Origin: Acidimicrobiales bacterium
GTDB lineage: Bacteria; Actinomycetota; Acidimicrobiia; Acidimicrobiales; DATDAH01
NCBI GenBank assembly: GCA_041918615.1
Contig: JAYRVH010000007.1
Location: forward strand, 71,426 to 135,425
Length of the DNA stretch: 64,000 nucleotides
Direction: 5' to 3'
Made by a program: the position numbers and the translations under genes
The notes under the pieces: generated by a model
The model's input: the letters and a program-made list of their open reading frames with translations, nothing else
Told to the model about the DNA's origin: nothing
The model's database searches: none
Part shown: one piece after another, positions 2,447 to 24,088 of the stretch
Layout of the letters: each line of letters opens with the position of its first letter
Numbering within the stretch: the stretch's first letter is position 1

Positions 2447-2917
2447 TCAGCTCACGGTGAGCGTCCCGGTCATTCCTGCCTCGGCATGACCGGGGACATC
2501 ACACTTCATGGTGTAGGTCCCGGGAGCGAGGGATCCCAGATCGAGCTCGGTTGTGGCCCCGCCGTTCACCATCTCCGATGCGACCCCATCGACACTGAGG
2601 TTGTGGACCACGGTGCCTTCGTTGCTGATGTTCAGCACGGCTCCTGCCGGCACATCGACCTCGCCGGGCGTGATGGCGAACTCCGCCAGCGCCACAGGCA
2701 CGGCCTCCGTACCCGTCGCCGAGGTGGTCCCACCGCCGCCTGCCGAGTCTTGGGCCTCCTCGATCGCTCGCGCCGCCAGGCCGACGGCGAAGATCGCCGC
2801 CAGGAAGGCGAACGCGGCGATGAAGAGCCCGGCCAACGCGAGCGTGTCGGTGTTGAGCCCGGGTCGGCCACGAGTGGTGGCCGCCTGCTCCGGTCGGTCT
2901 GAGGTGATCGGTGTCAT
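2447..2917 (-). CDS. membrane-anchored cupredoxin (plastocyanin/azurin-like copper protein)
   Basis: The ATG at 2917 gives an N-terminal TM helix (LALAGLFIAAFAFLAAIFAVGLAA). The C-terminus VHNLSV...YTMKCDVPGHAEAGMTGTLTV carries a type-1 copper ligand pattern (H...C..H....M). Confidence 0.75.
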   Translation of the reverse strand: MTPITSDRPEQAATTRGRPGLNTDTLALAGLFIAAFAFLAAIFAVGLAARAIEEAQDSAGGGGTTSATGTEAVPVALAEFAITPGEVDVPAGAVLNISNEGTVVHNLSVDGVASEMVNGGATTELDLGSLAPGTYTMKCDVPGHAEAGMTGTLTVS

Positions 2918-2924
2918 CGGGCTC

Positions 2925-7400: not shown

Positions 7401-7475
7401 AACGACGATCAGGGCGAGCGTCGCGACCAGTGAGCTGACGCCTCGGAGGAGTAACAGGGATCGCCGCTCGTTCAT
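4401..7475 (-). CDS. membrane-anchored protein with two LysM domains and a C-terminal BTAD/TPR domain
   Basis: It has an N-terminal TM segment. Two LysM-like units are present (VTVQRHDSYWAIAERTLGDGLRWREILDLN... and VVVERGDNLWSISEDRL...LIYSGQVLVLP), followed by a Pro/acidic linker. The C-terminus looks like a bacterial transcriptional activator domain (DLFDWHVQRA...EHYQAALDLVLGKPF...SLMRAHIADDDRPGAESVYQEHAAAL). Its ATG overlaps the upstream stop (ATGA). Confidence 0.8.
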   Translation of the reverse strand: MNERRSLLLLRGVSSLVATLALIVVVPLLLATLVGWPLPTSIPTLDSFEQAAQSGISDQVLVNTLAVIAWIAWAQLALAVVTEAVAVARGRQAIHLPVLPAFQVTAARLVAGILMMASTVQPASALAAPPPLPIVAEAAAATPESIPDLLVPSFNGHTPPLLVRTSDLTPTALTAEPPTVTVQRHDSYWAIAERTLGDGLRWREILDLNVGRTLPDGTTIIAGDDTLHSGWVLLLPADATVESAASPSDGSPSAVSEEDDLGSVVVERGDNLWSISEDRLEDDLGREAANPEIAPYWGEVVDANQDRYLQPGNPNLIYSGQVLVLPRTGHEPPSSPPPPVEAEPAPPRDDAAESDDVPPPPAAPEAEVPAVDEAPPTSAEASLRPVDEPARADTAEDDESSNSAVPVAVVVGGLSSIALAVGLKRLLDRRRRRFANEHPGQLPGRTPAEQRELHQTVIAQADEDRIDDLQGVLGRLSASLAAMGSECRPRMIRHSDTSLEVLLDKPDTNPPAGWISTDNGKVWTLVEPPDTDEPYDGPLSPSPLMVTVGQPEDDAQLYLDLEADGVLALTGDLEVATNLARSIITELTLSPLADTLRVIAVGDVVDRDAEVLEHLTIVDTWDGHAEDLVAWATQSHAALVENGWANAFVGRGHEPDHDALVPVAVVAHRPPPDELAAALRAVQPSAVAVVVVGEFPDALATVRCEGDVLNFDMIDLACSPQELEADELAAISSVLVATDSPAEQELMEQLRAEFEAPASLNGTGPADDDELLDPIADESADAPPGYDVLVRMLGDITVEGGEPLKPKATAVVAYLALHRSVTTERLEEACWFGSDGTSHTKRLHDTMAESRSALGSQHFPANRSGKYVVGPRVRADLDLFDWHVQRAADLPPDEAVEHYQAALDLVLGKPFSYPNAARASFGWVDFEHHATSWELRVAGVAQACAALYIDAGQPSGAIAMLGRVVQTIPLNSAVVESLMRAHIADDDRPGAESVYQEHAAALEQAKLGDPEESIEQVRLDLRST

Positions 7476-7870
7476 GGCTGTGCTTCGTCGACGGCGGTGG
7501 CGGTCTCGCGGACGACGATGGTTCGGTCTGCGCCGGGGAGTATGAGCATCGGCTGCACTGAGGTCACCGTGACGGTGATGGAGGCGTCCGAGACGGTCGC
7601 CGTTCCTCTGACTCCGGCCCGCTCGAGGTACTCGACGGCGGCGGCCTCAGCGGCTGCCGGGTCGAGACGTGGCTCGTTCGTTGCGCGGAGATGGTTGAGA
7701 TCGATCTGCTGGGCGCCGGCCCGCGCCGCTCGCTCGGCGTCGTTGCGTGCTGCGTTGTGGGCGCGGATGACCTGCCCGCCGTCGTAGGCCATGCCGGCGA
7801 CGAGAACGAGCGCGGTGGCGACGACGGCGACGAAGGCGGTGATGCTGCCACGCTCGTCGTGGGGTTTCAT
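7472..7870 (-). CDS. TadE/TadG-like pseudopilin
   Basis: The ATG at 7870 gives MKPHDERGSITAFVAVVATALVLVAGMAYDGG. This is the ERG plus hydrophobic-helix motif of the TadE/G family. It overlaps its neighbours by 4 nt. Confidence 0.7.
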   Translation of the reverse strand: MKPHDERGSITAFVAVVATALVLVAGMAYDGGQVIRAHNAARNDAERAARAGAQQIDLNHLRATNEPRLDPAAAEAAAVEYLERAGVRGTATVSDASITVTVTSVQPMLILPGADRTIVVRETATAVDEAQP

Positions 7871-8295
7871 GAGCCGTCGCTCCGATAGGTGTCGATGACC
7901 TCGACAGCGGTTGCAGTGAAGGTCCGTCGTCCGGGGACGCCGAGGAGAGTGACGTCGGCCATGGACGTTTCGCAGCGGACAGTGACGGTGACCGTCCCGC
8001 CGGCAACGAACTCGCCGGTGTCGACGGTGGTGGTCAGTAGGAGGCACGGCACTCCGGCGGCGGCGAGGTTCTCGGCGGCAATCGTCTCTGCGACGGCCGT
8101 GGCGTCGGAAGGGTGCTGCAGCAGAGAGGCGGCACGGGCAGCGTCGGACGCGGCACGTTCGACATTGCCGTCGGCCTCCGAGACCTTTCCTGCGTAGACG
8201 ACGAGGAGCATGAGGAACAGCAGTGCGGGTGCGATGACAGCCACCTCGACGGCGATCGATCCTCGTTCGTTACATAGGCGGGCTGGGAGTCTCAT
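7867..8295 (-). CDS. TadE-like pseudopilin
   Basis: The ATG at 8295 gives MRLPARLCNERGSIAVEVAVIAPALLFLMLLVVYAG, a TadE N-terminal motif. Confidence 0.7.
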   Translation of the reverse strand: MRLPARLCNERGSIAVEVAVIAPALLFLMLLVVYAGKVSEADGNVERAASDAARAASLLQHPSDATAVAETIAAENLAAAGVPCLLLTTTVDTGEFVAGGTVTVTVRCETSMADVTLLGVPGRRTFTATAVEVIDTYRSDGS

Positions 8296-8678
8296 CGCTG
8301 TGACTCGGGGACGAATCGCTCGACCGGGGCGGCGCTGCGAGCGGTGACCGACCATGCGAATCCTGGGACCAGCTGGGGTGCTTCGCCACGGACCTCGGCG
8401 GTGACAATCGTGGGCTCCCGGCTCACGGTGACGGTGATGTTGTCGAGGTTCCCGGACTGGGCGAGGTAGGCGCCGGCGGCGTCCTCGCCGTCGCGGGCAG
8501 TGCCGCTGGAGACCTGGGCGGCGTCGACGGCCTCGGCGGCAGCGGCGTTGGCGACCTGCTTGGCGTGCCACCACAGCCCGTACTGGACGATGAGCATGAT
8601 CCAGAAGAGGACGGCAGGAAAGAGGATGGCGACCTGGATGGCCGTCATCCCTCGCTCGTCGCGCAGCCGCCGGCCCAC
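8292..8678 (-). CDS. TadE-like pseudopilin
   Basis: The GTG at 8678 gives VGRRLRDERGMTAIQVAILFPAVLFWIMLIVQYG. An alternative ATG lies at 8648. The TadE motif is present. Confidence 0.65.
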   Translation of the reverse strand: MGRRLRDERGMTAIQVAILFPAVLFWIMLIVQYGLWWHAKQVANAAAAEAVDAAQVSSGTARDGEDAAGAYLAQSGNLDNITVTVSREPTIVTAEVRGEAPQLVPGFAWSVTARSAAPVERFVPESQR

Positions 8679-8683
8679 GAGGC

Positions 8684-8893
8684 TCAGCCCCCTGGCTGTT
8701 CGGGTGTGGGGATGTTGTTCGCGTTGCTCTGCGCAGCGGCGTAGATGATGCCGAGCACCACGATCGCGGCACCGACCAGCAAGAAGGTGATGACCGCGAC
8801 TTCCGTGGTGGTCATCCCGCGCTCGTCGTGGGGGTCGATGCCGAGGCGGGCGCAGCAATAGGCAAACAGCAGCCGGGGGTCGGGGACGGGCAT
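8684..8893 (-). CDS. flp: Flp/Fap family pilin precursor
   Basis: A 69-aa ORF reading ...DPHDERG/MTTTEVAVITFLLVGAAIVVLGIIYAA. The G/xxxxE(V) processing-site pattern is followed by a hydrophobic helix. Its position between tadC and the tadE genes fits. Confidence 0.7.
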   Translation of the reverse strand: MPVPDPRLLFAYCCARLGIDPHDERGMTTTEVAVITFLLVGAAIVVLGIIYAAAQSNANNIPTPEQPGG

Positions 8894-8921
8894 GGTGGCC
8901 TCCTTGGGTGTGGTGGCTCCG

Positions 8922-9833
8922 TCAGGGTTGGGGCCCGCTGACTGTCGTGATCTGCACGACGGCGGGGTAGGCGATGAAGACGAGGAAGCCGAACAACAGG
9001 ACGGCGACAGGGACGGTCATGCGTTCCGTGGCTGCCTCTGCCGCGGCCTCGATCTCGGCGACTTGGTGGCCTCGGAGCGTGTCAGCCTTGGCGGCGAGGG
9101 AGGATCGGATGCGAGCGCCGTGTGATCCGGCGAGGGAGACGCTGGCGGCGAGCTCGGCCATCTCGTTGATGCCGGAGCGGGTGCCGAGTTGGGCGAAGGC
9201 GTCCCACGGGGACTGTCCGGTGAGACGGGCGCGGCGCAGTTCGGCGCGGATGGTCTGGTACCCCCAGCCGTCGCCGGCGTCCGCAGCGGCGTGCAGCGCC
9301 GTTTCGATGCCGGCACCTCCGGCTAGGAGCACGTTGACCAGGTCGAGATAGGACGAGAGCGCGTGGCGGAACGCTTGTCGTCGCTTCGCTGCCTCCTCAC
9401 GCAGGATGAGATCGGGCAGCAGGAATCCCGCTGCCGCGGTCGCCAGCGAGAACATGGCGATGACACCGATCGGCACCGGGATGCCGAGAACCACGAGCGC
9501 AGTGGCGGCCAGATTGGGGACGAGCAGCCCGGCGATTGCGCCGAGGAGCTTGTCGAAGGCGTGTCGCTCAGTACTGCGGCCGACGAGTTCCAGCTCCTGA
9601 TCGTGGCGGCGAGCGTCGTAGCCGAGGGCCCCGACGACGCGTCCGGCAGCCGATTCGATCTGGCCGAACCCTGACGCGCCCGATGGTGCGACGTCGTCGA
9701 TGCTGGTTCCTGGGCGAGCGAGCCCGGCGAGGACCGCCTCGACGCTCGACGGGCGTGGTGCCAGGCCTCGCCAAATGAGCAGAACGCCGACACCGACGCC
9801 GGCTCCCAGCAGGACTACGACGAGCGTGGTCAC
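8922..9833 (-). CDS. tadC: type II secretion system F-family protein TadC
   Basis: The GTG at 9833 (VTTLVVVLLGAGV...) overlaps the tadB stop as GTGA. The sequence is a polytopic GspF-like protein (LSSYLDLVNVLLAGGAGIETAL...MTVPVAVLLFGFLVFIAYP). The longer 645-aa ORF-track extension is an out-of-frame overlap with tadB. Confidence 0.8.
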   Translation of the reverse strand: MTTLVVVLLGAGVGVGVLLIWRGLAPRPSSVEAVLAGLARPGTSIDDVAPSGASGFGQIESAAGRVVGALGYDARRHDQELELVGRSTERHAFDKLLGAIAGLLVPNLAATALVVLGIPVPIGVIAMFSLATAAAGFLLPDLILREEAAKRRQAFRHALSSYLDLVNVLLAGGAGIETALHAAADAGDGWGYQTIRAELRRARLTGQSPWDAFAQLGTRSGINEMAELAASVSLAGSHGARIRSSLAAKADTLRGHQVAEIEAAAEAATERMTVPVAVLLFGFLVFIAYPAVVQITTVSGPQP

Positions 9834-10702
9834 GTCTCCGCTCCGACGTGCGTCGGCCCGCCGGCTCGGGCGGTGAACCGCTCGGGCAGTACAAGCTCGG
9901 CCATGCGCGTGAGGAGCCAGCCTCCGACGGCGAAGATGCCGCCCACGATGGCCAACATGACTTGGCCGCCGGCGCTGTCGTACACGGCGAGGTAGCCGCG
10001 GTTTGCGATGGCGAGGAAGACCGCCGCCGCAATCACGACGCCGAAGATGACCTTCGTCGCCGTACGGACTCGGGTGCGGCCCACCTCGACTCGGATGCGC
10101 ATTCGGGCGTCGCCGCGGGTGGCGTCCGCTAGACGAGAGAGCAATCCTGAGAGATCGGAGGCTTCCATGCGGGAGGCGATCACCAAGGCCGCGACGACGA
10201 GGTCGCCAGAGGGATGGTCGAGGTCCTCGCCGAAGGCCACGAGGGACTCGGGGAGCCGCTGGTGGTCGAGGCGACGGACCATCCTTCGCACCTCGGTAGC
10301 TAACGGGGAAGGTGCGACGGGCGCGGTGGCGACGATGGCCTCCTCCAGTCCGGAGGCGGCGACGATCGAGTCGCGGATCATCTCGGTCCAAGAGGCGATG
10401 GCTTCGGTTCGGTCGATGGCTCGTTGCCTCGCGCTCTTGCCGCCGAGGATGCCTGGCAAGACGAGCGCAGCAACGACGGCCATGACGCCTCCGACCAGCC
10501 ATCCGGTTGCTGCGAATACGACCAGCCCGGCAGCAGCCGCTATGGAGACATTTCGCAGCTTTGAGCTGTCGACGATGCGTCGGAGGGAGCTCCAAGGAGC
10601 GTCGAGAATCTGACGGCCGGCAAGCCCGGCGACGGTCACGAGCACCCCGAGGGCGGCGCCAGCTGCAAGGGCGGCGAGGACGAGAGCGGTCATCGCCACC
10701 AC
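9830..10702 (-). CDS. tadB: type II secretion system F-family protein TadB
   Basis: A 290-aa polytopic protein (WTEMIRDSIVAASGLEEAI...KVIFGVVIAAAVFLAI). An alternative ATG at 10693 forms an ATGA overlap with the tadA stop. Confidence 0.8.
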   Translation of the reverse strand: MVAMTALVLAALAAGAALGVLVTVAGLAGRQILDAPWSSLRRIVDSSKLRNVSIAAAAGLVVFAATGWLVGGVMAVVAALVLPGILGGKSARQRAIDRTEAIASWTEMIRDSIVAASGLEEAIVATAPVAPSPLATEVRRMVRRLDHQRLPESLVAFGEDLDHPSGDLVVAALVIASRMEASDLSGLLSRLADATRGDARMRIRVEVGRTRVRTATKVIFGVVIAAAVFLAIANRGYLAVYDSAGGQVMLAIVGGIFAVGGWLLTRMAELVLPERFTARAGGPTHVGAET

Positions 10703-12042
10703 CCGTGGGCGGCTGCGTGGGCACTGGCGTCGAAGCCGTGGGCTTCGAGCTGGGCCGCGAGGTCCGGGGTCGGTGGTGCTGCCGGGATCCCGCTACCGGT
10801 GCTGTCGGGTTTCCACAGCTCGTTGGAGACGACTTGGCCGCCTTCGACCGTGCCGGCAACTTGACGGACGCTGGTCACCCGACGTTCGCCGGATACCCAG
10901 CCGAGGTGCACGATGAGGTCGACGGCGTTGGCCACCAGCAGGTTGGTGACATCGGGGATCAGCCGCTCGGGAGTCATGGCGGCGTACATGGCGAGCCGCC
11001 CGAACACGCCTTTGGATGAGTCGGCGTGGATCGAACACATCGAGCCGTCGTTGCCTTGGCTCATGGCGAGCAGCATCGGGAGGACCTCCGCCCCCCGGAC
11101 CTCACCGACGATTACCCGCTGGGGATCCATACGCAGCGCAGAGCGGACCAGTTCCGCGAGGCTGAATGAGCCAACGCCTTCGGTGTTGGCCTCGCGGGCT
11201 TCGAGCGTCTCGTGGTCGGGGTGAAGTTCCTCGAAGCGCTCCAGGCCGATCTCCAGCGAGTCCTCGATGGTGATGAGGCGCTCGGTGGCAGGAATCTCAT
11301 TGATGAGGCACCGCAGAGTCGTCGTCTTCCCGGTGCCGGTGCCGCCGGCCACGATGATGTTGGCTCGCGCCCGCACCGCAGCCGACAGGAAGTTGGCGAG
11401 CAGTTCGTCACAGACCCCTCCGTCCACCAGCTGGGACAGGCGGTGTATGTCGAAGTCGTGGCGGCGGATCGTGACCGTCGGGCGCCCCGACACCGCCATG
11501 AGCGCGTGGAGACGGTCGCCGTTGGGTAACTGGAGGTTCAGCTCCGGCTGGGCGTGATCCCACCGGCGCTCGCTTCGCCCGATGCGCCGGGCGGCTGTGG
11601 CGATGAGCTCGATGAGGTCGTCGTCGAAGTCGGCGACAGCGGGCCCGCGGACCTTGGTTCCATCTCGCAGGTTCAGCCAGACGCGCTGAGCGCCAGAGAT
11701 GTGGATGTCTCGGATCTGGGGGTCATCGAGGAGCGGCTGAAGACGAGCGAGACCGTGGATGCGGTCGAGCACCGCCGCAGTGACCTTGGCTTCGGTGGCC
11801 TCGTCGAGTGGCGCCCGGCCATCGGCGTAGGCGCTCGCCGCTAGATGGCGGAGGTCATCTGCCATGAGCTTGCGGGCCAGTGCTCGTTCGTCGCTGGGCG
11901 AGAGCCGGCCGCGGCCTGCTTCTTCGTGGGCTACGTGGGCTGCCGTGAGCGCCTCGCCGACGCTGTGGTGCAGCCGGGCGACAAGATCAGAGTCGATCCC
12001 ATCCTGATGCCACGCTGTCGGCGCGGTCACCGTTGCGGTCAT
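10690..12042 (-). CDS. tadA: CpaF/TadA family secretion ATPase
   Basis: Walker A is GGTGTGKTTTLRCL. The motifs RLITIEDSLEIGL, RMDPQRVIVGEVRGAEV and SMCSIHADS are the VirB11/CpaF signature. Confidence 0.9.
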   Translation of the reverse strand: MTATVTAPTAWHQDGIDSDLVARLHHSVGEALTAAHVAHEEAGRGRLSPSDERALARKLMADDLRHLAASAYADGRAPLDEATEAKVTAAVLDRIHGLARLQPLLDDPQIRDIHISGAQRVWLNLRDGTKVRGPAVADFDDDLIELIATAARRIGRSERRWDHAQPELNLQLPNGDRLHALMAVSGRPTVTIRRHDFDIHRLSQLVDGGVCDELLANFLSAAVRARANIIVAGGTGTGKTTTLRCLINEIPATERLITIEDSLEIGLERFEELHPDHETLEAREANTEGVGSFSLAELVRSALRMDPQRVIVGEVRGAEVLPMLLAMSQGNDGSMCSIHADSSKGVFGRLAMYAAMTPERLIPDVTNLLVANAVDLIVHLGWVSGERRVTSVRQVAGTVEGGQVVSNELWKPDSTGSGIPAAPPTPDLAAQLEAHGFDASAHAAAHGWWR

Positions 12043-12749
12043 GGCACAGCCTCAGCCACGGGCTCGAGCAGCGAGGCTCCGACATTCTCGCCCAGCGCCG
12101 CAACCGCCCGAACGAGTCGAGACCGGGACAGCCGTGCTCTGGACGCGTTTCCGGTGCGCAACGCCTCGGCCGCATCCGGGTCATCGGGCAGTTCTCCGAC
12201 CACCCTCACTCCGATCGAGCGCTCGACATCGGCACTGCGGTAGGGCCCGTGTCCGACGAGAAGGACGCTGGCCTGACCCCGGACCACGTGGGGCAGCACC
12301 GATAGGAGGTGAGTGAGCGCCACGAGCTGCTCGGCGACCGGGTGGACAAGGATGGCCAGAAGGTCCGAGGCGGCGACGATCGGGCTCGGTGACCGCAGAC
12401 GTCCAGCATCGACGACCGCGACTCCGTCCGAGGCGACCAGTTCACGGGTGATTCGCTCCCCCGCCGTACGCCACAACGCGGCGCTGGAGGAAGGCGCGTC
12501 CGGGCCGACGAGCACCGGCACTCCGCCCGCGTCCTGTGCGTGCGCCGTCCACCCGCTCCCGTCGCCCGGTCCAGCAGCGGCGAACGTCGTCAGGCCCGGC
12601 TCCCGGCCAAGGCCGTATCGGATGGCGAGGACACCACCGTCGAGGTCGGCCTCGACTACCAGGCCGTCGGCGAAAGTCGACGCCAGAAGGAGCGATGCCG
12701 TGGTCACGCCCGGAGCGCCCCGAACCGATGCGAGGGTCACCACCTTCAT
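12039..12749 (-). CDS. TadZ/CpaE-like ParA/MinD-fold protein with a degenerate P-loop
   Basis: MKVVTLASVRGAPGVTTASLLLAS replaces the canonical GGxGKT motif. It sits between cpaB and tadA and overlaps both by 4 nt. Confidence 0.55.
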   Translation of the reverse strand: MKVVTLASVRGAPGVTTASLLLASTFADGLVVEADLDGGVLAIRYGLGREPGLTTFAAAGPGDGSGWTAHAQDAGGVPVLVGPDAPSSSAALWRTAGERITRELVASDGVAVVDAGRLRSPSPIVAASDLLAILVHPVAEQLVALTHLLSVLPHVVRGQASVLLVGHGPYRSADVERSIGVRVVGELPDDPDAAEALRTGNASRARLSRSRLVRAVAALGENVGASLLEPVAEAVP

Positions 12750-13417
12750 GGGGCCACCAACACGAGTCGCAACCCACCTGCACCGGCCGCGGCCGCGACC
12801 GCCGCGGCATCAGCCTCATTGGTCAGGACCGAGACCAGGATCTGATCGCTCGGCAGGTCCTCGACGTCGAACACCGTGGCGGAGCGAGCGACGACCGTCG
12901 GCTCTGCATCGAGATTGGCCACGTCCTCGGTGCGCACGACGTGCACACGGTCGCCAGGGGCCAGTCCACGCGAGGGGTAGGCCCCCGGGTCGAGGGACAG
13001 CCCGACGACTCCGTCACCGGTGTCGACCGCTGGGACGTCCGCAACCACCGAAGTCGAGAGGAGCGTCCCTTCGGCAAGGTCGATCAAGGCGGCACGCCCG
13101 ACGACCCGGTCCATCTCCGAGCTGTCGAGACGCGCCAACGTGCTGTCGCTGGACACATACGCGACTCGGACGTCGCTGGCGTCGATCATTTCTCCCCGCT
13201 CGAGCGGTGACGCCGCGACCAACGCCGGCACCTTCTCGACCGCGCTCAGGTGCCACAGAGCGGCGCCGAGGGCGAAGACGACCGTGACAAGGACACCGAT
13301 CGCAACCTCTGGCACCCGTATCCGACTCCCCGGTGGACGGACCTCTGCGGAGGGGCGTGTCGGCTGCCCGTTGGAGGAAGGGGCACCTGTCCGAGTTGGG
13401 GTATGGGTCGACACCAC
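12746..13417 (-). CDS. cpaB: CpaB/RcpC-like SAF-domain pilus assembly protein
   Basis: It has an N-terminal TM helix (VAIGVLVTVVFALGAALW). A SAF-like segment follows (LVAASPLERGEMIDASDVRVAYV), with a typical C-terminal region. It starts at a GTG. Confidence 0.7.
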   Translation of the reverse strand: MVSTHTPTRTGAPSSNGQPTRPSAEVRPPGSRIRVPEVAIGVLVTVVFALGAALWHLSAVEKVPALVAASPLERGEMIDASDVRVAYVSSDSTLARLDSSEMDRVVGRAALIDLAEGTLLSTSVVADVPAVDTGDGVVGLSLDPGAYPSRGLAPGDRVHVVRTEDVANLDAEPTVVARSATVFDVEDLPSDQILVSVLTNEADAAAVAAAAGAGGLRLVLVAP

Positions 13418-14906: not shown

Positions 14907-15158
14907 GTCTCAGGCTCCTCTGCTCGAGCAACCCGCTAGGGGCGCCCCGGAATACCCAGTACCTAGTGGCTACAATGTCGACGGTACGCCGATACGACTT
15001 GAGTGTCCACCCCCGGCCGACAATGGAGCGACCGGGAATGCGGCGTCGTCCAAACCCGGTCAGACGGCAGGTCTGGAATCGCAATTCGCCAGTCCAGGAA
15101 GCGGTGAGCGGGCGAGCTCGGCCCCTCTCGGACAGGGCCGTCGGGACTGCCCGTGCCA

Positions 15159-15839
15159 TCAGCTCGCCCACGGCAGCTCGCGCAGCCGGGCTTCGGCTCG
15201 CCACCGGCGGTGCCACAGCACCTTGAGCGACACTTCCTGCTCGGCAGCGAGATCGGCCATCGACTCGCCGCCGACCCGGCTGCGGATGATCGTGCCGAGT
15301 ACGTCCTTCGAGACGCCGTACCGCTCGCTCAAAGCGATCAGCTCCTCGACGAATGCGTTGCTGAGGACTCGGTCCTCAGCCGACGGCTCATCGGGGGCGT
15401 CGCCGATGCTTGTAGGGCACCGCCGCGACGTGTCGTGCTCGCGCCCATAGCGCTTACGAACGTCCAACAGGACGTTGCCCGACACCGAGCCGGGCCGGTG
15501 GGCCGGGTAGGTGCGGATGCGTTCCCATGCGAGCCGAACGACGTCGTCGACCGCGTCAGCGTCACGGCCCACCCGGTGTGCGAGGTTGACAAGGCCGCCG
15601 AGGAATTCCTGCAGCAGTGTGCGAGCTGCGAGGTGGTCTGTCGGGGCGAGCGTGGCCAGCGCACGGCGGACCTCGGGACCGATGTCAGGTCGATAGCCGA
15701 GGTCGATTACGTCGTCGAGATCGGCCGCCGGCAGGAGCACGGGGTGCACCGCCCGCCAGCGCATGAGTGCGCGGCGTGCGGCTGGAGAGTCGGCGATCGT
15801 CGACCACTCCTTGTTGAGCGATTGCAGGATCTGTGCCAT
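15159..15839 (-). CDS. sigma-70-like / HTH regulator (regions 2- and 4-like)
   Basis: The ATG at 15839 has a strong AGGAGG RBS 6 nt upstream. VVRLAWERIRTYP resembles sigma region 2. The C-terminal GESMADLAAEQEVSLKVLWHRRWRAEARL resembles the region 4 HTH. It is the first gene of the Tad-direction cluster. Confidence 0.5.
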   Translation of the reverse strand: MAQILQSLNKEWSTIADSPAARRALMRWRAVHPVLLPAADLDDVIDLGYRPDIGPEVRRALATLAPTDHLAARTLLQEFLGGLVNLAHRVGRDADAVDDVVRLAWERIRTYPAHRPGSVSGNVLLDVRKRYGREHDTSRRCPTSIGDAPDEPSAEDRVLSNAFVEELIALSERYGVSKDVLGTIIRSRVGGESMADLAAEQEVSLKVLWHRRWRAEARLRELPWAS

Positions 15840-15883
15840 CGAGAGCCTCCTGATGTCGTCGGACACCAGGAGGGTCCGCGTGG

Positions 15884-15979
15884 CACCTCCCGCTGGACCT
15901 CCCGCGCGACCTCCCGTGGAACGGATTTCTCGAGCTCACTCCCCCGGTTCGACCGACACACCTCCCGCTCGACCTCCCG
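15884..15979 (+). repeat. five direct copies of (G/C)ACCTCCCG in two 12-bp-phased groups, inside the divergent promoter region
   Basis: Copies are at 15884, 15896 and 15908 (12-bp steps) and at 15959 and 15971 (12-bp step). They lie in the 189-bp gap between the sigma-like gene (-) and the 16029 gene (+). Confidence 0.85.
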
Positions 15980-16028
15980 TTCGCTCTCGCACTGCGCGCT
16001 GCGCCGCTGCTCAGGGGCCTACGAGGGC

Positions 16029-16571
16029 ATGGAACGTGATCGAACGCTGTCCTTCACCCCGGTCGACCACCCCGACCTACGCGTGCAACGGATCGGGTTC
16101 GACCTGACCGACCCCTACGTCGAGCAGTGCTGGTCAGCGGTCGTCGGCCCCAGCTCGACGCTGTTGCTCCGTCGACTTCCCACCTTGTGGGTCACGCGGG
16201 TGCCCGCCGAGATCGGCGCCAGCGACCTGTCCCGCTCCCTGGGCCTCGGCGTGGGTGTCGGCGACCGGAGCCGGCTCGCGAACACGCTGAATCGGCTCGT
16301 CCAGTACCGGCTGGCAACGCCATCATCTGACGGAGCGGGGCTCGATGTGTTCCGCAAGGTTGCGCCGCTCAGCCCCCGCCAGCTCGCTCGGGTTCCGGAG
16401 TGGACGCACGGCACCCACGAGCGCCTCTTCGGCACCCACCTCGAGCACATCGACGACGTCGCCCAGCACCGAGCGAGCGTCGCATCGATGGGCGCTCGAC
16501 TGGACCGCCTCCGGCACGGGTCACCGACTGTGGCACACGAACCCCACCCACTCGGGCAGGCCCTCGGATGA
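16029..16571 (+). CDS. hypothetical protein, possible winged-helix DNA-binding protein (relaxosome accessory candidate)
   Basis: MERDRTLSF...SDLSRSLGLGVGVGDRSRLANTLNRLVQYRLA resembles a wHTH recognition helix plus wing. The upstream part of the 472-aa ORF is antisense to the sigma-like gene. The start is uncertain. Confidence 0.45.
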   Translation: MERDRTLSFTPVDHPDLRVQRIGFDLTDPYVEQCWSAVVGPSSTLLLRRLPTLWVTRVPAEIGASDLSRSLGLGVGVGDRSRLANTLNRLVQYRLATPSSDGAGLDVFRKVAPLSPRQLARVPEWTHGTHERLFGTHLEHIDDVAQHRASVASMGARLDRLRHGSPTVAHEPHPLGQALG

Positions 16572-16664
16572 AGGCCCTCCGTCGCCGGGATGGCTCCCCT
16601 GGACCACCGGCCTCCGCGGCCATCCGCATCGCTCCAGAACGGCAGGTCCGGCGCGCACACATTT

Positions 16665-16689
16665 GCAGGTTTCCCTCCGGGAAACCTGC
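16665..16689. other. perfect 11-bp inverted repeat GCAGGTTTCCC-TCC-GGGAAACCTGC, candidate oriT hairpin
   Basis: Read directly from the sequence. It lies 25 nt upstream of the relaxase GTG and 2 nt before another GACCTCCCG copy (16692-16700). Confidence 0.5.
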
Positions 16690-16713
16690 TGGACCTCCCG
16701 CCGGCGGTGTGCG

Positions 16714-19700
16714 GTGAAGTTCACGGTCACCCCGCTGGGCGGCGGACGGGCCGATGCGGCCCGTGTCGTGGACGCGATCGTTCGCTACCTCCAGCCGCCG
16801 CCCAAGGTCACGCCTTCGGGTCCTTCCCCGGCGTCGGGTGGGGATGGCCCGGCGCGGTACTACGCGGACCGGGGCGAGGAGCCGGGTCGGTGGCTCGGAC
16901 GGGCCGCTCATGACGCTGGGCTCGCCGGGGTCGTACAGCGGCCTGACCTTACAGCGGTCCTGGCGGGTCGGGACCCGCACACCGACCAGCGGCTCATCAC
17001 CGCTCAGGGCTCAGCAGGTCGGCGACCCACCCTCGGATCGGGGGCACACACCAAAGTCGGGGCCGACGGCGAACCGCTGTACGACGTGGCCGACACGGCG
17101 GCTGCGCTCGGGGTGTCACACCGCCAGGTCGAGCGGATGCTCGATGCCGGCACGGCCGTCGCACTCGGCTCCCTCGCTACGACCCTGGGGCCGCAATCAC
17201 CACCGGGAGGTCCAGCGGGACCTCCCGTGCGACCTCCCGACAGGGATACCGAAGCTCAGCGACCTCCCGCTGGACCTCCCGTCACCCCTGTAACCAGCAC
17301 GTTCGCGCAGCCGGGAGGCTCCTACCTCGTGCCCCTGGTCGAGGGCGACGGTTCGCGATGGGTGCGGGCCAGCGAGCTGGCCCGCTGCGACCGCGCCAGG
17401 GATGCCGGGGTGGAACCTGGCGAGATCCGGGCACTAGGGGCTCCCGACGATCACCTCGGCCTAGCCGAAGCTGCCCGCCTGATCGGGCTCACCAAGCAGT
17501 ACGTGCGCGGACTCGCCCGCTACCACAACGAACACCAAGTCGAGATCGAACGATCCCTCGCCGCCGGGCGCCACCCACGCAAAGCCTTCCTGGTCGCTCA
17601 CCGGGGCACGAAGGGGCAGTGGCTGGTCACCCGCGAGCACCTGGCCGAGTTCCTAGAACGCCGACGCCCACCTTCGGTGCGGGTCGGCTACGACCTCACA
17701 TTGACTACCGAGAAGTCCCTCGGCGTCCTCGCCCTCCTCGCTGACGACACGACTCGGGACACGGTGCTGGGGTCGATCCAGGCGGGGAACGATTGGGCGC
17801 TCGACTGGCTCGAGGACCACGCTGGGACGGGCCGCGTCGAGGGCCGTCAGGTCCAGGGCGACGGGTGGATGGTGGCGTCGTTCCGGCACCTCACCTCCCG
17901 AGCGCTTGACCCGTTCCCGCACCATCACAACGTGATCGCCAACACCGTCCGGCTCACTGACGGCACCCACCGGGCCCTCGACGCCCGTGGCCTCTACCAA
18001 CATGCCCAGGCGGCCTCAGCGCTCGCGACCGCTGAGATGCGCCACCAGCTCACCGAACTGCTCGGGGTGCGGTGGCGGCCAGGCCACAAGTCCGGCTGGG
18101 AGATCGACGGCATCACTAGGGATGTCATCGGCGAGTTCTCCAAGCGGCGCAACGAGATCGACGACGCCCTCCGCGAGCTCGAAGCAGAGATCGGACGAGG
18201 CGCGCATCCCAACGAGATCGAACACATCGTGCTGCGCACCCGCCCGGCCAAGAACCACGTCCCCGCTGACGACCTGATCGCCGCATGGCGGGAGCGCGCC
18301 GCTCGTCACGGCCTCACTCCCGACGCGCTCGCCGCGATCACGAGCCAGCAACTCAACGAGCAGACTGTCGATGCCAATGAGTTGTTCGCGTCGCTCGCCG
18401 GGCCCGACGGCATCTGCGCGGGAGGGTCTGTGTTCTCCCGGTCCGCGGCGCTGGCCGCGATAGCCAACCATCCCGTTCCCGCCACCGACGGCGACGAGGC
18501 CCAGCCGCTGCTGTGTGGAGCGCGCCGAATGATCGAACTGACCGACGAGTTCCTCGCCTCACCACACGTTGTCGCGCTCACCGAAGCTGACGACCCCTTG
18601 TTCACCACAATCGAGATGCTCGACGTGCAGGAGCGCATCACCGCTCGGTTCACCAAGGGTCTCCACCGCGCCGCACACCTCGTCCCCGACGAGCAGGTCG
18701 ACGCCACGGTCGGCCGCCACCCACACCTGACCGCTGAACAGCAACGGCTGGTCACCGAGTGGTGCCAGCGCGGTCACCGGTTCCAAGCCGCCATCGGTCG
18801 CGCCGGAGCGGGCAAGACCACCACGGTCGCCGCCTGCGCCGATGCGTGGACCGCCGAGGGCTACCGAGTCGTCGGTGCCGCGGTGAAGGGAGAAGCGACC
18901 CGGACGCTCGCGGCCGCTACCGGGATCGAGTGCGAGACCGTCGCCTGGTATCTCGCCCACACCGACCCGCACAGCCTTCCGCTCGATGCACGGACGATCC
19001 TCGTCGTCGACGAAGCGTCCACGCTCTCGGACCGCGACCTCGACACCCTCATGGGCATGGCCGCCACCACTGGCGCCAGCCTCCGACTCGTCGGTGACCC
19101 CGCCCAGCACGGCGCCATTGCCGCCGGCGGCATGTTCCGAGTGCTGTGCGAACGCCATCCGCAGCACACCCCAGAGCTGACCACCACGCACCGGCTCCAG
19201 AACCCCCACGATCGCGCTGCCGCCCAGGCTCTCCGTGAAGGTCGGATCGATGAGGCCTTCGACGAACTGGCCACGGCCGGACACCTCCATGTCGTCGGCG
19301 ACGACCTCACCATGTACCGCCATGTCCTCGGCCACTGGTGGGACGCCCACCGAGACGGACTGGATCACCCGATGGTCGACCGTCGCAACAGCACCCGCCG
19401 CCAGCTCAACCGCCTGGCTCACCTCCTCCGCCAAGTGAATGGCGAACTCGGCGACGAGGAGATCCGAGCCAGCGGGGGTCGAGCCTTCGCCGTTGGCGAC
19501 CGCATCACCGCCCGCGCCCCGAACCGCGATCTTCACGTCGAGGGCGACCGACGCGCCTACGTCCGCAACGGCGCCCTCGGCACCGTCGTCGCCGTCCACC
19601 GGCACCGCCGAGACAGCGCGCGCGACACGCTCTCCGTGGCGTTCGACGGGATCGGCAGCATCGAAATCCCACGGACCTTCTTCGACCTCCACAGGACCCC

Positions 19701-20452: not shown

Positions 20453-21199
20453 GTGGCACAGAGGTCAGACATCGAATGGACCGACGCGACGTGGAACCCG
20501 ACGACTGGATGCGACCGGACATCGCCCGGGTGTGACAACTGCTATGCGCTCGCGCTGGCGAAGCGACTTAAAGCGATGGGCGTCGACAGATACCAAAACG
20601 ACGGCGATGCTCGCACGAGCGGACCGGGATTCAGGCTGACCACGCACGAGGACCTCGTCGAAGTGCCCTACCGGTGGAAGAACCCCCGGCTGGTGTTCGT
20701 GAACTCCATGAGCGACCTCTTCCACGACGACGTGCCCGAGGACTTCATCCGGCGGATCTTCACAGTCATGGCCGAGACACCGCGCCACACGTACCAGATC
20801 CTGTCCAAGCGGACGAAGCGGCTCACCAGGCTCGCGCCGAACCTGGACTGGCCAACGAACGTGTGGATGGGCACCAGCGTTGAGACCGCCCCCTATCGGT
20901 TCCGAATCGACCATTTACGCGAGGTCCCTGCCGCCGTCCGGTTCGTCTCGGCTGAGCCGCTCCTGGGCCCACTTGGTCGCGTGGACTTGGAGGGCATCGA
21001 CTGGGTGATCGCTGGCGGCGAGTCAGGACCGCGAGCGCGACCCATGGACATCGCGTGGGGTCGCGACCTCCGCGACCAATGCCTTACCCAAGGGGTCAAG
21101 TTCTTCTTCAAGCAGTGGGGGGGCCGCACTCCGAAGGCTGGCGGCCGTGAGCTTGACGGCCGGACGTGGGACGACATGCCAATTCCAGCAGCGGTGTAG
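20453..21199 (+). CDS. DUF5131 / phage Gp37-Gp68 family protein (three-Cys motif)
   Basis: [26 protein letters not shown] carries C-x6-C-x2-[34 protein letters not shown] and FFFKQWGG are the family pattern as I remember it. Confidence 0.8.
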
Positions 21200-21206
21200 G
21201 GGCTCT

Positions 21207-22364
21207 ATGCCAGCGAGTACCGCCTTCTTCGGGCAGCGAAACGCCCAGGCAGTCCTCAAACACGGGGTCCTGGCCCGCTATGCGCACTACTTCGCGGGGC
21301 GGGCAGGCGCTGCGACACAGGGGCGCGTCGCATTCATCGATGGGTACGCGGGCGAAGGGCGCTACAAGGACGGCAGCCCCGGTTCTCCCCTGCTCCTCGC
21401 ATCCCAGGCGACCCGAGCCGAGATGTTCGGCCGCGAAGTGAAGCTCGCCTTCGTCGAGCAGGACGATGCCCGCCGACTTCGGCTCCAGCGATCCCTCGAC
21501 GACAACCAAGTCGAGGCCGACCAGATCCTGGACGGCGACCTCGAATCAGTCGTTGATGGCCTGATCGACAGGTACGAACGACACGCGATTCTCCTCTTCG
21601 TCGATCCCTTCGGCCTGGCCTTCAGTCAAGTGACGCTGAAGCGCATCCTGGGCCGCCGGACCCGCCAGCAGCCGATCGATGTTCTCTACCACTTCAGCCT
21701 CTCGACGGTGGCCCGCATGGGCCGCGCTGGTGTCCTCGGTGGACCGACATCGCAACAGAACGCGGCGCGGCTGGACACTGCCCTCGGCGGGGTGGACTGG
21801 CGACACGACTTCGACACAGCCGACGACCCCAACGCTCCCACGCTGGCTGCGCTCGAGGTTGCGAGGCGGTTCGGATCCTCGGTGGGCGAGGCGGCCAACG
21901 TACCGAGTACTGGCGTGCCCGTCCGTCAGCGTCCTGGGCAGCTGCCGAAGTACGTCCTGATGCTGTTCTCTGCCGATCCGAAGGCCCACTGGGACTACGC
22001 CGACGTAGCGGGCAAGACGCATGTGGACTGGCTGCACCACTGCGACCACACGGACTACGAAGCGAACATTCAGCTACGTGCAGAAGCCGGCGTCCTTTCC
22101 CTGTTCGAGGAACCTGAACCCGACAAGGACGAGATCGAGCAGCAGATTCGCCGCGAGTCCCTTGCCTACCTCCCTGACCATTTGGCCGAGCTCGTCCGCA
22201 CGCGAGAGTCCCTTCGACCTGTCGATGCGGTGCAGGAGACCTACGGTGAACAGCTCGGTCTTGCTCGAGCAACCCATGTGCGCGCGGCGCTCCAGCAGTT
22301 GCACCGACAGGGCGTCATCGCCGATGACGCCACCGGAGACTTCTGGACGAGATCAATCCGATAG
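21207..22364 (+). CDS. three-Cys-motif partner protein TcmP-like
   Basis: The ATG at 21207 lies 8 nt after the DUF5131 stop. AVLKHGVLARYAHYF...VAFIDGYAGEGRYKDGSPGSPLL...LLFVDPFGL matches the TcmP N-terminal pattern and its invariable adjacency to DUF5131. The C-terminus looks like a winged helix. Confidence 0.7.
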   Translation: MPASTAFFGQRNAQAVLKHGVLARYAHYFAGRAGAATQGRVAFIDGYAGEGRYKDGSPGSPLLLASQATRAEMFGREVKLAFVEQDDARRLRLQRSLDDNQVEADQILDGDLESVVDGLIDRYERHAILLFVDPFGLAFSQVTLKRILGRRTRQQPIDVLYHFSLSTVARMGRAGVLGGPTSQQNAARLDTALGGVDWRHDFDTADDPNAPTLAALEVARRFGSSVGEAANVPSTGVPVRQRPGQLPKYVLMLFSADPKAHWDYADVAGKTHVDWLHHCDHTDYEANIQLRAEAGVLSLFEEPEPDKDEIEQQIRRESLAYLPDHLAELVRTRESLRPVDAVQETYGEQLGLARATHVRAALQQLHRQGVIADDATGDFWTRSIR

Positions 22365-22384: not shown

Positions 22385-23668
22385 TCAGTTCTCGATCACG
22401 TCAGGTGTGTCCCGCTGGCGGCGAGCCGAGGCTGAGCATGCCTCCTCTGGCAGCTCGTCGTCTTCGCCGCCGTCGCCACGGCTCGCATCGGGCCTCGCCT
22501 TGTTCCGCTCGTTGCGGAGAAGCAACGAGAACGTGTCGGCGGCGGCGGCCTGCATTCCGGGCAGGACATGCTGATACACGTTCATGGTGAAGGCGACGTT
22601 GGCATGACCAAGGCGCTCGCTGACGACCTTGACGTTGACGCCGGCCTTGAGCAGCAGGGTCGCGTGGGTGTGGCGGAGATCGTGCAATGAGATGTCCGGG
22701 ATTTCGATCTTGGCGACGGTGCGGTCGAAGAGCTGGCTGAAGATGTCCGGGTGCATCGAGGTGCCGTCGGCCTTGACGAACACGAGGTCGTCGGCCGTCG
22801 GCTGCACGCCGTCGCGCTCCTCGGTGCGGTTCTTGTGCCAGTCCTTCAGCACCTGGGCGACGTTGTCGTCGATGTCGATGGTGCGACGGCTGGTTGTGGT
22901 CTTCACATCCGAGATCGAGACCTCGTAGGCCACCGACACCAGGGCCTGACGGACAGACACCCGACCGGCGTCGAGGTCGAGGTCCCGCCAGCGCACCCCG
23001 AGCACCTCGCCCCGGCGCATACCGGTGTATGCCGAGAAGTAGAACGCCGGGGCCATCCGGTGCGGGGCGATCGCATCGAGGAACCGGACGAGCTGGTCGA
23101 TCTCCCACGCCTTGATCTCGGGGCGCTTGCGAGCCTGGAGCGACGGGGCGTCGGCGAGAGCGACGACGTTGCGGACGACGGTGCCCTTGCGGGCCGCGTC
23201 TCCGAGCGCCTTGTTCAGCATCACGTGGATGTTGTGCACCGTCTTGGGTGCCAGGCCCTTCGTCGGGCCCTTCTCGCCGGGGCGCTTCTTGCGGCCGGAC
23301 TTGAGCAGCGCCGCATAGAACAGGTCGATGTCCTCGGGGGTCAGCTCGTCGAGCTGGCGCTTGCCGAGCGCTGGGATCACGTGCAACTCGATGTTGCGCC
23401 GGTAGGCGTCATGGGTACTTCTGCGCAGCCGGGCCTCCTGGACTGGCAGCCACCGGTCGGTCAGGTAGTCGCCGAGTGTGATCCTCTCGCTCACCACGGT
23501 CTCGCCGCCGTGGCTGCGCTTCACCAACTCCGCGAGCAGTTTCTCCGCGTCCCCGCGCCGTGTGCCCGCCTGGACCCACCGCCGCCGGTACTGGCCGGTC
23601 GCTGGGTTCACGCCGTCGTAGACGACGGCATACCACTTCTTGCCCTTCTTCTGGATGGTTCCGCGCAT
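22385..23668 (-). CDS. int: tyrosine-type site-specific integrase
   Basis: The ATG at 23668 gives MRGTIQKKGKKWYAVVYDG (an arm-binding-type N-terminus). A SAM-like core-binding region follows. The catalytic residues appear as ...MRRGEVLGVRWRDLD...HDLRHTHATLLL...LGHANVAFTMNVYQH (R..HxxR..Y). Confidence 0.9.
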   Translation of the reverse strand: MRGTIQKKGKKWYAVVYDGVNPATGQYRRRWVQAGTRRGDAEKLLAELVKRSHGGETVVSERITLGDYLTDRWLPVQEARLRRSTHDAYRRNIELHVIPALGKRQLDELTPEDIDLFYAALLKSGRKKRPGEKGPTKGLAPKTVHNIHVMLNKALGDAARKGTVVRNVVALADAPSLQARKRPEIKAWEIDQLVRFLDAIAPHRMAPAFYFSAYTGMRRGEVLGVRWRDLDLDAGRVSVRQALVSVAYEVSISDVKTTTSRRTIDIDDNVAQVLKDWHKNRTEERDGVQPTADDLVFVKADGTSMHPDIFSQLFDRTVAKIEIPDISLHDLRHTHATLLLKAGVNVKVVSERLGHANVAFTMNVYQHVLPGMQAAAADTFSLLLRNERNKARPDASRGDGGEDDELPEEACSASARRQRDTPDVIEN

Positions 23669-23919
23669 CAGCGTCCCCTTCGGATCGAACCGTGTGGGGA
23701 CATCGAGCAGCGGACGAGGCCGGCGATCCCGCGACGTCCGGCGGGGATCTGGCGCTGCACCTTCGACCATACGCCTCGAGAACCCGAAGATCGACCCCCA
23801 GGGTGGTACGGGGCTCGATCGGAATGCCGGCTCAGGCCCCTCCGCGACCCCATCGCGTGGGGCTGAGATCCCGTCTCGTGGCGCTGCGTACCGGCGCCGA
23901 GTGGTCGATCCCAGGCCGC

Positions 23920-23941
23920 ACAGTAGAAAAAACAGTAGAAA
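23920..23941 (+). repeat. two perfect ACAGTAGAAA direct repeats 12 bp apart (possible integrase/Xis arm-type sites)
   Basis: The copies are at 23920-23929 and 23932-23941. They form an AT-rich patch in otherwise GC-rich DNA between int and the tRNA. Confidence 0.4.
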
Positions 23942-23961
23942 TTCGGCTGCCGGGGCATGGG

Positions 23962-23995
23962 AGAGGCCCTCCTCGATGTCTCGAAAAGGGCCTCT
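23962..23995 (-). terminator. 9-bp stem hairpin just downstream of the tRNA 3' end
   Basis: AGAGGCCCT-16 nt-AGGGCCTCT. On the minus strand a T-run (TTTTTT) follows only about 30 nt later, so terminator function is uncertain. Confidence 0.3.
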
Positions 23996-24011
23996 GACCA
24001 GGTACTTCAGT

Positions 24012-24088
<77 letters not shown>

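Follow-up and report, generated by a model that had tools for sequence, protein, structure and literature searches.

The window analysed here, a stretch of 64,000 nucleotides of the Acidimicrobiales contig JAYRVH010000007.1, holds an integrative conjugative element (ICE) in an Acidimicrobiia-like genome. The transfer module of this element is made up of an ECF-like (extracytoplasmic function) sigma gene on the minus strand and, on the plus strand, a gene for a 180-amino-acid (aa) winged-helix protein (WH), a conserved hairpin that is a candidate origin of transfer (oriT), and a gene for a MobF/TrwC relaxase (Table 1). Short boxes repeated with a 12-bp period are found in the divergent intergenic region, beside the hairpin and within the relaxase open reading frame (ORF). 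The best explanation, to which we assign a probability of about 0.6, is that these repeats are lineage-specific iterons acting at the level of DNA, that is, double-stranded docking sites of both relaxosome and operator for a specificity protein encoded by the element, most likely WH. Their nature as DNA-level iterons is indicated by the fact that the encoded peptide follows the DNA word, and by a strong bias towards CCTCCC in the relaxase gene.

Phased boxes and the word that they share

A pattern search for SACCTCCCG returned ten copies on the plus strand and one inverted copy on the minus strand within the module, so that all eleven copies reported in the initial annotation were recovered. 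Neighbouring boxes are exactly 12 bp apart in every cluster, each unit consisting of a 9-nt box and a variable 3-nt spacer, and Tandem Repeats Finder independently detected period-12 arrays at 15885-15920 and 15960-15983, in agreement with the strict phasing originally described. The whole window contains 16 matches, as compared to 4.26 +/- 2.0 in dinucleotide-preserving shuffles, none of which (0 of 100) reached 16, and 11 of the 16 fall inside 1.4 kb, a stretch for which chance predicts about 0.09; the clustering is therefore real. Exact copies of GACCTCCCG number 10 in the window, 9 of them in the repeat region. One-mismatch variants, on the other hand, are not enriched window-wide (52 observed, 56 expected), which indicates that SACCTCCCG is a local motif. 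A REP-like (repetitive extragenic palindromic) word spread over the genome, which had been named as a possible refutation, is ruled out by this lack of enrichment and by the local clustering. The perfect 10-4-10 palindrome noted earlier was also found (CGGGAGGTCC-AGCG-GGACCTCCCG, at 17204-17227), as was the described arrangement of the sigma-like, WH and relaxase genes. Some conservation of the sequences flanking the boxes does exist, but it is weaker than had been stated, the 3-nt spacer being variable. A further CACCTCCCG at 17892-17900, on the plus strand within the relaxase ORF, is single, unphased and at chance level.

Related loci were collected from GTDB genomes by means of the 180-aa protein (30 loci) and from metagenomes by means of the relaxase N-terminus (80 loci), about 110 in total and nearly all of them from Acidimicrobiia; the search of a word-indexed protein database with the relaxase N-terminus returned 50 proteins, mostly fragments. 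The trio of sigma-like, WH and relaxase genes is kept across these loci down to ~40% identity. A lag-12 self-similarity scan located arrays at ~-840, at ~-770, at the hairpin flank and at +490 to +600 with respect to the relaxase start in most loci. Phased pairs were present in 54 of 73 distinct upstream zones and in 45 of 70 relaxase loops, as against 22 of 231 control zones, which were equal-sized stretches of the same relaxase genes, and the copy number in the relaxase loop goes from 0 to ~9-12 units.

The promoter, the hairpin flank and the relaxase gene of one locus carry a common word, and at least six words were identified, switched jointly at all three places. Class A, with GACCTCCCG, includes the window and many other loci; class A2 has GACATCCCG or GACGTCCCG (L014, L043, L045, L047), and class B has GGTCGTGC (L026, L052, L059, L064-68, L071, L100, L103 and the Iamia plasmid L111). 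The word is (G)CTATCCGGTTGG or GGTGTCCGGTTGG, in short form ATCCGGTTGG, in class C (L018-L021, L061), CGTTCCCG in class D (L060, L074, L083, L091, L094, L095), CTCACCG in class E (L081, L092), and CTTACCCG in L080. When one mismatch was allowed, the 9-mer of a locus's own hairpin flank recurred 2.6x upstream and 2.1x in the relaxase loop, whereas foreign 9-mers recurred 0.91x and 0.34x, respectively (54 loci). Thus, a tandem motif of fixed spacing is found at oriT, as in sites of relaxosome accessory proteins, and its word co-varies with the lineage of the element. This co-variation at all three places strongly supports the initial reading of the repeats as iteron-like sites for a sequence-specific DNA-binding protein. 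Boxes or arrays in inverted orientation occur in the window (17204), as second arrays in L019, L020 and L048, and in L055, L095, L073 and L111, and the use of both orientations is more in keeping with a binding site than with a promoter element.

Several observations concern individual loci or elements near the arrays. L009 (class A) and L020 (class C) are contigs of one metagenome-assembled genome, CTOTU2458, although its binning may be imperfect; their co-occurrence is consistent with a divergence of specificity that insulates co-resident elements. L111 is the finished plasmid of the cultured Iamia sp. SCSIO 61187 (NZ_CP050949, locus 5145-11468), with iterons of the TCGTGC type, and even there the annotation of the module goes no further than "hypothetical protein" and "MobF relaxase". 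Iamia majanohamensis is another cultured carrier. Despite their different iteron words, classes A, B and C have GATTTCT, GATTCTT or CATTTCT 7 nt beyond the final core of array 1, and one of the conserved helix-turn-helix (HTH) proteins may have its site here. L019 and L020 have a second, inverted copy of the whole unit of three boxes plus GATTCTT. CGCGCTG occurs three times between array 2 and the WH gene (15988-16010; period 7, Tandem Repeats Finder), and an element GCGCG(C/G) located ~35 nt ahead of the WH ATG, together with GGCCTACGnGGGCATG, is conserved across loci. An inverted repeat, CCTCCTG-N14-CAGGAGG, at 15846-15873 overlaps the Shine-Dalgarno sequence of the sigma-like gene (AGGAGG, minus strand; ATG at 15839) and is kept in homologous loci as cctcctggtgtcgttgagcaccaggagg; it may be a hairpin in the leader that masks the Shine-Dalgarno sequence, or an operator. 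Neither a sigma-70 promoter nor a terminator was found in 15700-16800. A structured RNA was rejected as an explanation, since Rfam gave no credible match in 15000-18000.

The relaxase loop and the candidate oriT hairpin

The relaxase fold is split by a ~190-aa insertion made up of two Xis/BldC-like winged helices of the HTH_17 type, and the array within the gene sits between the recognition helix and the wing of the first of them (HTH1). With 12 bp amounting to four codons, the boxes are in frame and encode aa 164-190. The AlphaFold model gives the insertion a predicted local distance difference test (pLDDT) score of 76-95 except at residues 159-196, where it is below 50, so that the repeat region is modelled as a disordered loop of the inserted HTH domain. 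The peptide encoded by this loop depends on the class, being (G/R)PP(V/A) in A, GHPV in A2, (E/D)GR(A/V)x including GRVS in B, GYPV or GHPV in C, and VPGR or IPGx in D.

Codon use in 24 class A and A2 relaxases is informative in this respect. Pro-Pro in the loop is encoded as CCTCCC in 45 of 54 cases, whereas elsewhere in the same genes CCTCCC is used in 0 of 36, CCGCCG (15) and CCGCCC (7) being among the choices there, and CCT makes up 34% of the proline codons in the loop and 6% elsewhere. A codon-driven repeat is ruled out by these figures. It could still be argued that the copies in the gene are no more than a proline-rich repeat on whose peptide selection acts, the likeness to the intergenic boxes being a coincidence or the result of functionless local duplication, since the in-frame boxes encode xPPx repeats, as is typical of flexible linkers. 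However, besides the CCTCCC bias, the DNA core is kept while the peptide shifts (GPPV, GHPV, GRAx, GYPV, VPGR), the word in the gene matches the intergenic and hairpin-flank boxes of the same lineage, and 13-mers such as GCTGGACCTCCCG recur across coding and non-coding DNA. Codon use and word co-variation effectively refute this explanation already, and the chance left to it is negligible. Selection in the gene acts on the DNA, not on the peptide. The initial annotation had set against its own reading the case of homologous relaxases keeping the peptide while varying the DNA; the alignment of homologous elements gave the opposite outcome, with the core of the DNA kept and the peptide varying. 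As a separate observation, metagenomic relaxases often leave the frame exactly in the array (TSRWTSR, DLPFDLP; P0137, P0154, P0158, P0168, P0169, L002 and L023), which may reflect assembly errors in repeats, real frameshifts or phase variation.

An inverted repeat with an 11-bp stem is present 20-35 bp before the relaxase start in ~90 loci. Among 42 distinct sequences, 99.6% of the cells are paired and 7 of the 11 pairs show compensatory double changes, a level attained in none of 500 shuffles. The module thus has, beside the gene of its cognate MobF/TrwC relaxase, an inverted repeat kept by compensatory change, as is found in an oriT of the MOBF type. To the right of the hairpin the flank is variable, and a box belonging to the locus's own repeat family always begins ~2 nt in. 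No other DNA of the region is as conserved as the left flank, GCGCGCACACATTT, in which A17, A19 and C20 are invariant in the 42 sequences; its minus strand has hairpin-AAATGTGT|G, or AAGGGTGT|G in distant loci. In the nic site of TrwC, the hairpin is followed by 8-9 nt of single-stranded DNA and by a purine after the nick (PMC4176350). The left flank appears to resemble such a MOBF nic region and, by analogy with the TrwC layout, we infer a nic on the minus strand at ~16657/16656, in which case the relaxase gene would be the last to be transferred.

Candidate readers and alternative functions

The mechanism that we propose is that WH, oligomerised through its long C-terminal helix, would bind the boxes. 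Bound to the two intergenic arrays it would autoregulate the divergent promoters of the sigma-like gene and of the WH and relaxase genes, and its binding at the hairpin-side box would mark the element's own oriT for its MobF relaxase, which is predicted to nick the minus strand 8 nt past the other side of the hairpin. The arrays in the ORF, which lie ~550 bp downstream, would enlarge this nucleoprotein complex or bridge it, and could thereby form a ~1.3-kb loop around oriT and possibly a roadblock on transcription of the relaxase gene. These boxes would be true DNA sites lying over a disordered, sequence-tolerant loop of the relaxase, with the peptide repeat as a by-product, and the divergence of the word between lineages would provide each element with a private relaxosome and operator code. 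A further-reaching version, which we put forward only tentatively and consider doubtful as a whole, sees the relaxase-loop array as a dual-coding "address label", an expandable set of the docking boxes of promoter and oriT that evolves in concert with them, insulates co-resident elements and loops oriT into a closed domain that licenses nicking. Such concerted evolution, in which 12-bp units are gained and lost and words are switched, would then cause the relaxase gene to be inherited as a unit with oriT and the specificity code. If true, this would represent a relaxosome architecture and a constraint of DNA over protein coding undescribed for any conjugative system; accessory sites at oriT are of a kind already known, while the dual-coding aspect is unusual.

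The WH gene lies between the arrays and the oriT hairpin. WH has 272 homologues, all of them hypothetical, and no Pfam or NCBIfam match. In its AlphaFold2 model (pLDDT 86.8), a conserved beta-alpha-alpha part at the N-terminus is joined by a winged helix and by a C-terminal helix of 40 residues, the latter a candidate oligomerisation helix. The N-terminal 55 aa are nearly invariant, and the protein's winged helix-turn-helix (wHTH) part varies between iteron classes. Foldseek returned weak matches to the N-terminal domain of Gram-positive DnaB, to domain 1 of RctB and to MarR among the best 50 of 109 (E <= 10). We would give WH, as the reader of the boxes, somewhat less than an even chance; HTH1 of the relaxase is an unlikely reader, the sigma-like protein one as unlikely or slightly more so, and what is left falls to another protein or a host factor.

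A number of results weigh against the proposed role of the boxes or against WH as their reader. The array in the ORF is missing from 25 of 70 relaxases, so that these copies are dispensable, and in the most distant lineages the hairpin-flank box has no clear match to the arrays. WH has no sequence match to any solved structure, a profile search of the PDB sequences having returned nothing relevant, TcpK (an oriT-binding wHTH protein) included, and TcpK (PDB 5VFY/5VFX) is not among the best 50 of 109 Foldseek matches either. Within class A, helix 3 of WH varies and the box stays the same. In L073 an internal deletion (2600-3000) has removed most of the WH gene, but the iterons are kept, and the WH gene of the Iamia plasmid L111 is cut by an IS3. 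In L002 and L026, no sigma-like gene was detected by tblastn over the ~8 kb of upstream sequence covered in both, and the iterons are present. These natural knock-outs decide nothing, each being a single case that may be in decay. Shared phylogeny makes all DNA-binding segments of the module, the region-4 helix of the sigma-like protein included, co-vary with the iteron class, and the attempt to assign the reader by inspection of recognition helices failed because the iteron classes are clades. A Mantel and partial Mantel analysis, in which phylogeny is a confounding factor, failed to tell the candidates apart, the partial test giving the highest correlation to sigma region 2 (r = 0.77) and the lowest to the WH recognition helix (r = 0.05); it was based on 24 loci dominated by deep clades and without class B, and its rows for the HTH1 wing and the second HTH (HTH2) are unreliable, as the regular-expression anchors are missing in 7 loci.

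It could be the case that the iterons are read by the relaxase, through a head-to-tail binding of its tandem HTH_17 insertion to the direct repeats, which would recruit the relaxase in cis to oriT and to its own gene; the arrays would then sit in the HTH1 loop because that is where the protein emerges. HTHs of the BldC/Xis type do polymerise head-to-tail on direct repeats, the insertion has a Pfam HTH_17 match and resembles in fold BldC-DNA, RacA-DNA and TraN, the two-HTH oriT-binding protein of pIP501, the HTH1 helix differs between class A (SHREVERM) and class B (TKAEAARM), and HTH1 reached a partial Mantel r of 0.43. However, hardly any variation is seen over all iteron classes in HTH2 (TxRYLRxLA) or in the wing of HTH1 (GSYLVP..DGSRWV), and the helix types do not track the word: SHREVERM is common to A, A2, C and L058, whose boxes differ, and L074, a class D locus with a TCCCG core, bears the class-B-type helix TKAEASRM. 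Conserved readers better suit conserved DNA. On these grounds the insertion looks the least likely of the three readers first proposed, this alternative is improbable, and the DNA recognised by the relaxase HTHs would probably be conserved parts of oriT and not the iterons. The recognition helix of the small HTH_17 protein encoded after the relaxase, SRNAAYAAARQW, is likewise nearly invariant, class B elements included, and is therefore probably not the variable reader. More plausibly, the invariant HTHs recognise the hairpin arms, the ACAC flank or GATTTCT.

The iterons could also be promoter elements for the element's own ECF-like sigma factor, with a -35-like GGACC and a -10-like CGTT taken from adjacent units (GGACC-N15-CGTT). 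Promoters would then overlap in tandem ahead of the WH/relaxase operon, and others would lie inside the relaxase gene. In favour of this, GGACC...CGTT is similar to the consensus elements of ECF promoters, motifs of regions 2 and 4 are present in the sigma-like protein, whose gene is always the divergent neighbour of array 1, the region shows no detectable promoter of the sigma-70 type, and sigma region 2 heads the Mantel ranking, confounded as this is by phylogeny. But GGACC-N15-CGTT can be read only across adjacent class A units, the words of class B, class E and others being unlike ECF elements, and its spacing is 1-2 nt below that of typical ECF promoters (16-17 nt). Moreover, the boxes point in either direction, with inverted arrays as well as inverted boxes immediately ahead of the relaxase start or within the ORF, the lone box beside the hairpin cannot be a promoter, and L002 and L026 keep iterons where the sigma-like gene was not detected. 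We consider this possibility still less probable than reading by the relaxase. Less probable again, and by a clear step, is that the arrays are sites of replication or partition of the excised circle, that is, oriV iterons or a centromere, with WH as initiator or centromere-binding protein. The best fold matches of WH are replication proteins, namely the N-terminal domain of the Gram-positive primosome protein DnaB and domain 1 of RctB; RctB binds 12-mers, and the tandem arrays are iteron-like. Nevertheless, the fold matches are weak (E from 5e-3 to above 1, template modelling score 0.3-0.4), GC is flat at ~0.70 with no AT-rich unwinding element, profile searches of the neighbouring proteins turned up no rep or par genes beside the arrays, the 12-bp period is far below the ~22 bp of Rep iterons, and nearly every lineage keeps a box tied to the relaxase hairpin. 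A parS site was rejected, as its defining features fail here.

Comparison with other systems and context of the element

The closest functional analogue would be TcpK of the Clostridium perfringens plasmid pCW3, a wHTH protein encoded beside oriT and essential for transfer, which binds tandem 9-nt boxes 3 nt apart and whose dimers bridge two DNA segments (PMC6137059). In both cases, a 9-nt box and a 3-nt spacer give a period of 12 bp, with the sites in oriT (PMC6137059), and the gene of a small winged-helix protein is directly beside oriT, although the binding is only predicted here; bridging of two DNAs by a dimer would suit three separated clusters. On the other hand, no sequence similarity of WH to TcpK was detected, TcpK being also absent from its best 50 of 109 fold matches, and homology of WH to TcpK or to TraM is unsupported. 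In addition, pCW3 has two boxes at one place, as compared to 6-15 boxes at three places here, one of these in the relaxase ORF, and its relaxase is not MobF. TraM of F-like plasmids is another oriT-side accessory protein, which binds cooperatively to motifs 12 bp apart (sbmA/B/C), with the DNA underwound to ~12 bp per turn, autoregulates its own promoter, has plasmid-specific alleles with co-varying sites and works with a relaxase of the MOBF family (PMC3159463). TraM is, however, a ribbon-helix-helix tetramer whose motifs have inverted symmetry, whereas our element has a winged helix, asymmetric and mostly direct boxes, and sites within the relaxase gene. The 9-nt boxes with 3-nt spacers of TcpK and the 12-bp distance of the TraM motifs support the likeness to relaxosome accessory sites that had been pointed out initially.

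The oriT of R388 shares with ours a MobF/TrwC relaxase and sites of an accessory protein (TrwA there, predicted here) adjoining the inverted repeat (IR). In R388, IR2 is located 8-9 nt from a conserved single-stranded nic region that ends in ...TGTxT before a purine (PMC4176350), to which AAATGTGT|G on our minus strand may correspond. The R388 oriT differs in that its stem has 5-6 bp as opposed to 11 bp, that TrwC lacks the 190-aa double-HTH insertion, and that the accessory gene is here on the other side of the putative nic. The tandem excisionase-like HTH pair of the insertion recalls TraN of the Enterococcus plasmid pIP501. TraN binds double-stranded DNA near the pIP501 oriT; in contrast to TraN, BldC and Xis, the two HTHs are here fused into the relaxase fold, and the parts of them that read DNA stay conserved from one iteron class to another. 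Replication iterons (RepE, pi, TrfA, RctB 12-mers) are also tandem direct repeats with winged-helix readers and lineage specificity, and WH is weakly similar in fold to RctB domain 1, but they are 17-22-bp repeats spaced ~22 bp apart rather than 12, and here neither a Rep gene, DnaA boxes nor an AT-rich region accompanies repeats that are tied to a relaxase hairpin.

The clt locus of Streptomyces, with its TraB recognition sequences (TRS), is a cis-acting transfer locus of Actinomycetota conjugative elements and likewise has short GC-rich repeats. TRS 8-mers are read by the gamma domain of TraB, an FtsK-like double-stranded DNA translocase, in a system free of relaxase. Our element, in contrast, has a MobF relaxase with an oriT hairpin and a Tad-type ATPase, and no gene of the TraB/FtsK type beside the repeats, so that the likeness to TraB and clt/TRS proposed in the initial annotation does not fit. 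Similarity to FtsK_SpoIIIE was only marginal, in the TadA-like ATPase (E 8.5e-4, below cut-off). We found no description in the open-access literature of boxes in a relaxase ORF, of a three-cluster oriT layout or of concerted word switching.

Conjugative elements of Acidimicrobiia and of related uncultured Actinomycetota are essentially unstudied, and the present results provide a map of their cis and trans components: the oriT hairpin, a probable nic, a private iteron code and a candidate reader, with at least six natural specificity classes available for comparison by swapping. They also offer a clear case of an array of DNA sites dictating the amino-acid sequence of a protein loop, and a caution for annotation, in that low-complexity protein repeats such as "PPxG" or "GRxx" may be footprints of DNA sites.

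Table 1. Positions in the window of the boxes, of the candidate oriT and of the genes around them
Feature	Position	Strand	Remarks
ECF-like sigma gene, 226 aa	15159..15839	-	region-2 and region-4 motifs; divergent from WH gene
Iteron array 1: three 12-bp-phased boxes, CACCTCCCG, GACCTCCCG, GACCTCCCG (starts 15884, 15896, 15908)	15884..15916	+	divergent intergenic region
GATTTCT element	15924..15930	+	exactly one 12-bp period past array 1's final core
Iteron array 2: two phased boxes, CACCTCCCG, GACCTCCCG (starts 15959, 15971)	15959..15979	+	50-70 bp upstream of WH gene
WH gene, 180 aa	16029..16571	+	no family assignment; long C-terminal helix
Conserved left flank, GCGCGCACACATTT	16651..16664	-	putative nic region of MOBF-type oriT
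Inverted repeat, 11-bp stem, GCAGGTTTCCC-tcc-GGGAAACCTGC	16665..16689		oriT hairpin candidate, 24 bp before relaxase start
Single iteron	16692..16700	+	2 nt past hairpin; sequence is that of the local iteron class in each lineage
MobF/TrwC relaxase-helicase gene, 1107 aa	16714..20037	+	start GTG 16714
In-ORF iterons: inverted box 17204-17212 and direct boxes 17219, 17231, 17261, 17273	17204..17281	+	
Small HTH_17 (Xis-like) gene, 92 aa	20051..20329	+	directly 3' of relaxase gene
Tyrosine integrase gene	22385-24049		abuts tRNA-Met 3' end
tRNA-Met gene	24012-24088		adjoins integrative element

Profile searches placed the relaxase in Pfam TrwC (1.4e-61) and NCBIfam MobF (2.9e-56, above cut-off), with an AAA_30 helicase domain, and matched its insertion to Pfam HTH_17, the fold matches of the latter being RacA, BldC and the two-HTH protein TraN of pIP501. 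The sigma-like protein has a weak NCBIfam sigma match and is conserved down to ~35-45% identity, with the motifs AWERIRTYP...NVLLDVRKRY and the region-4 helix ...RRWRAE. The 92-aa HTH_17 gene directly follows the relaxase gene in all genome loci long enough to show it. A search for 14-mer direct repeats gave no second att repeat of the tRNA-Met region in the window; the other end of the element was thus not found there and may lie outside. Neither VirB4 nor a clear coupling protein was seen in the window. Upstream of the module, at 4401-13417, there are genes of the Tad type (TadE-like, two TadB/C-like T2SSF, a TadA-like ATPase and CpaB/SAF) as well as one for a 1081-aa LysM/BTAD/TPR protein, and the pairing of a MobF relaxase with a Tad-like apparatus is an unusual combination. 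Between the relaxase module and the integrase gene, at 20453-22364, there is a gene matching DUF5131 (Pfam E 3e-100) and, after it, one for a TcmP "three-Cys-motif partner" protein, the two being probably a cargo pair.

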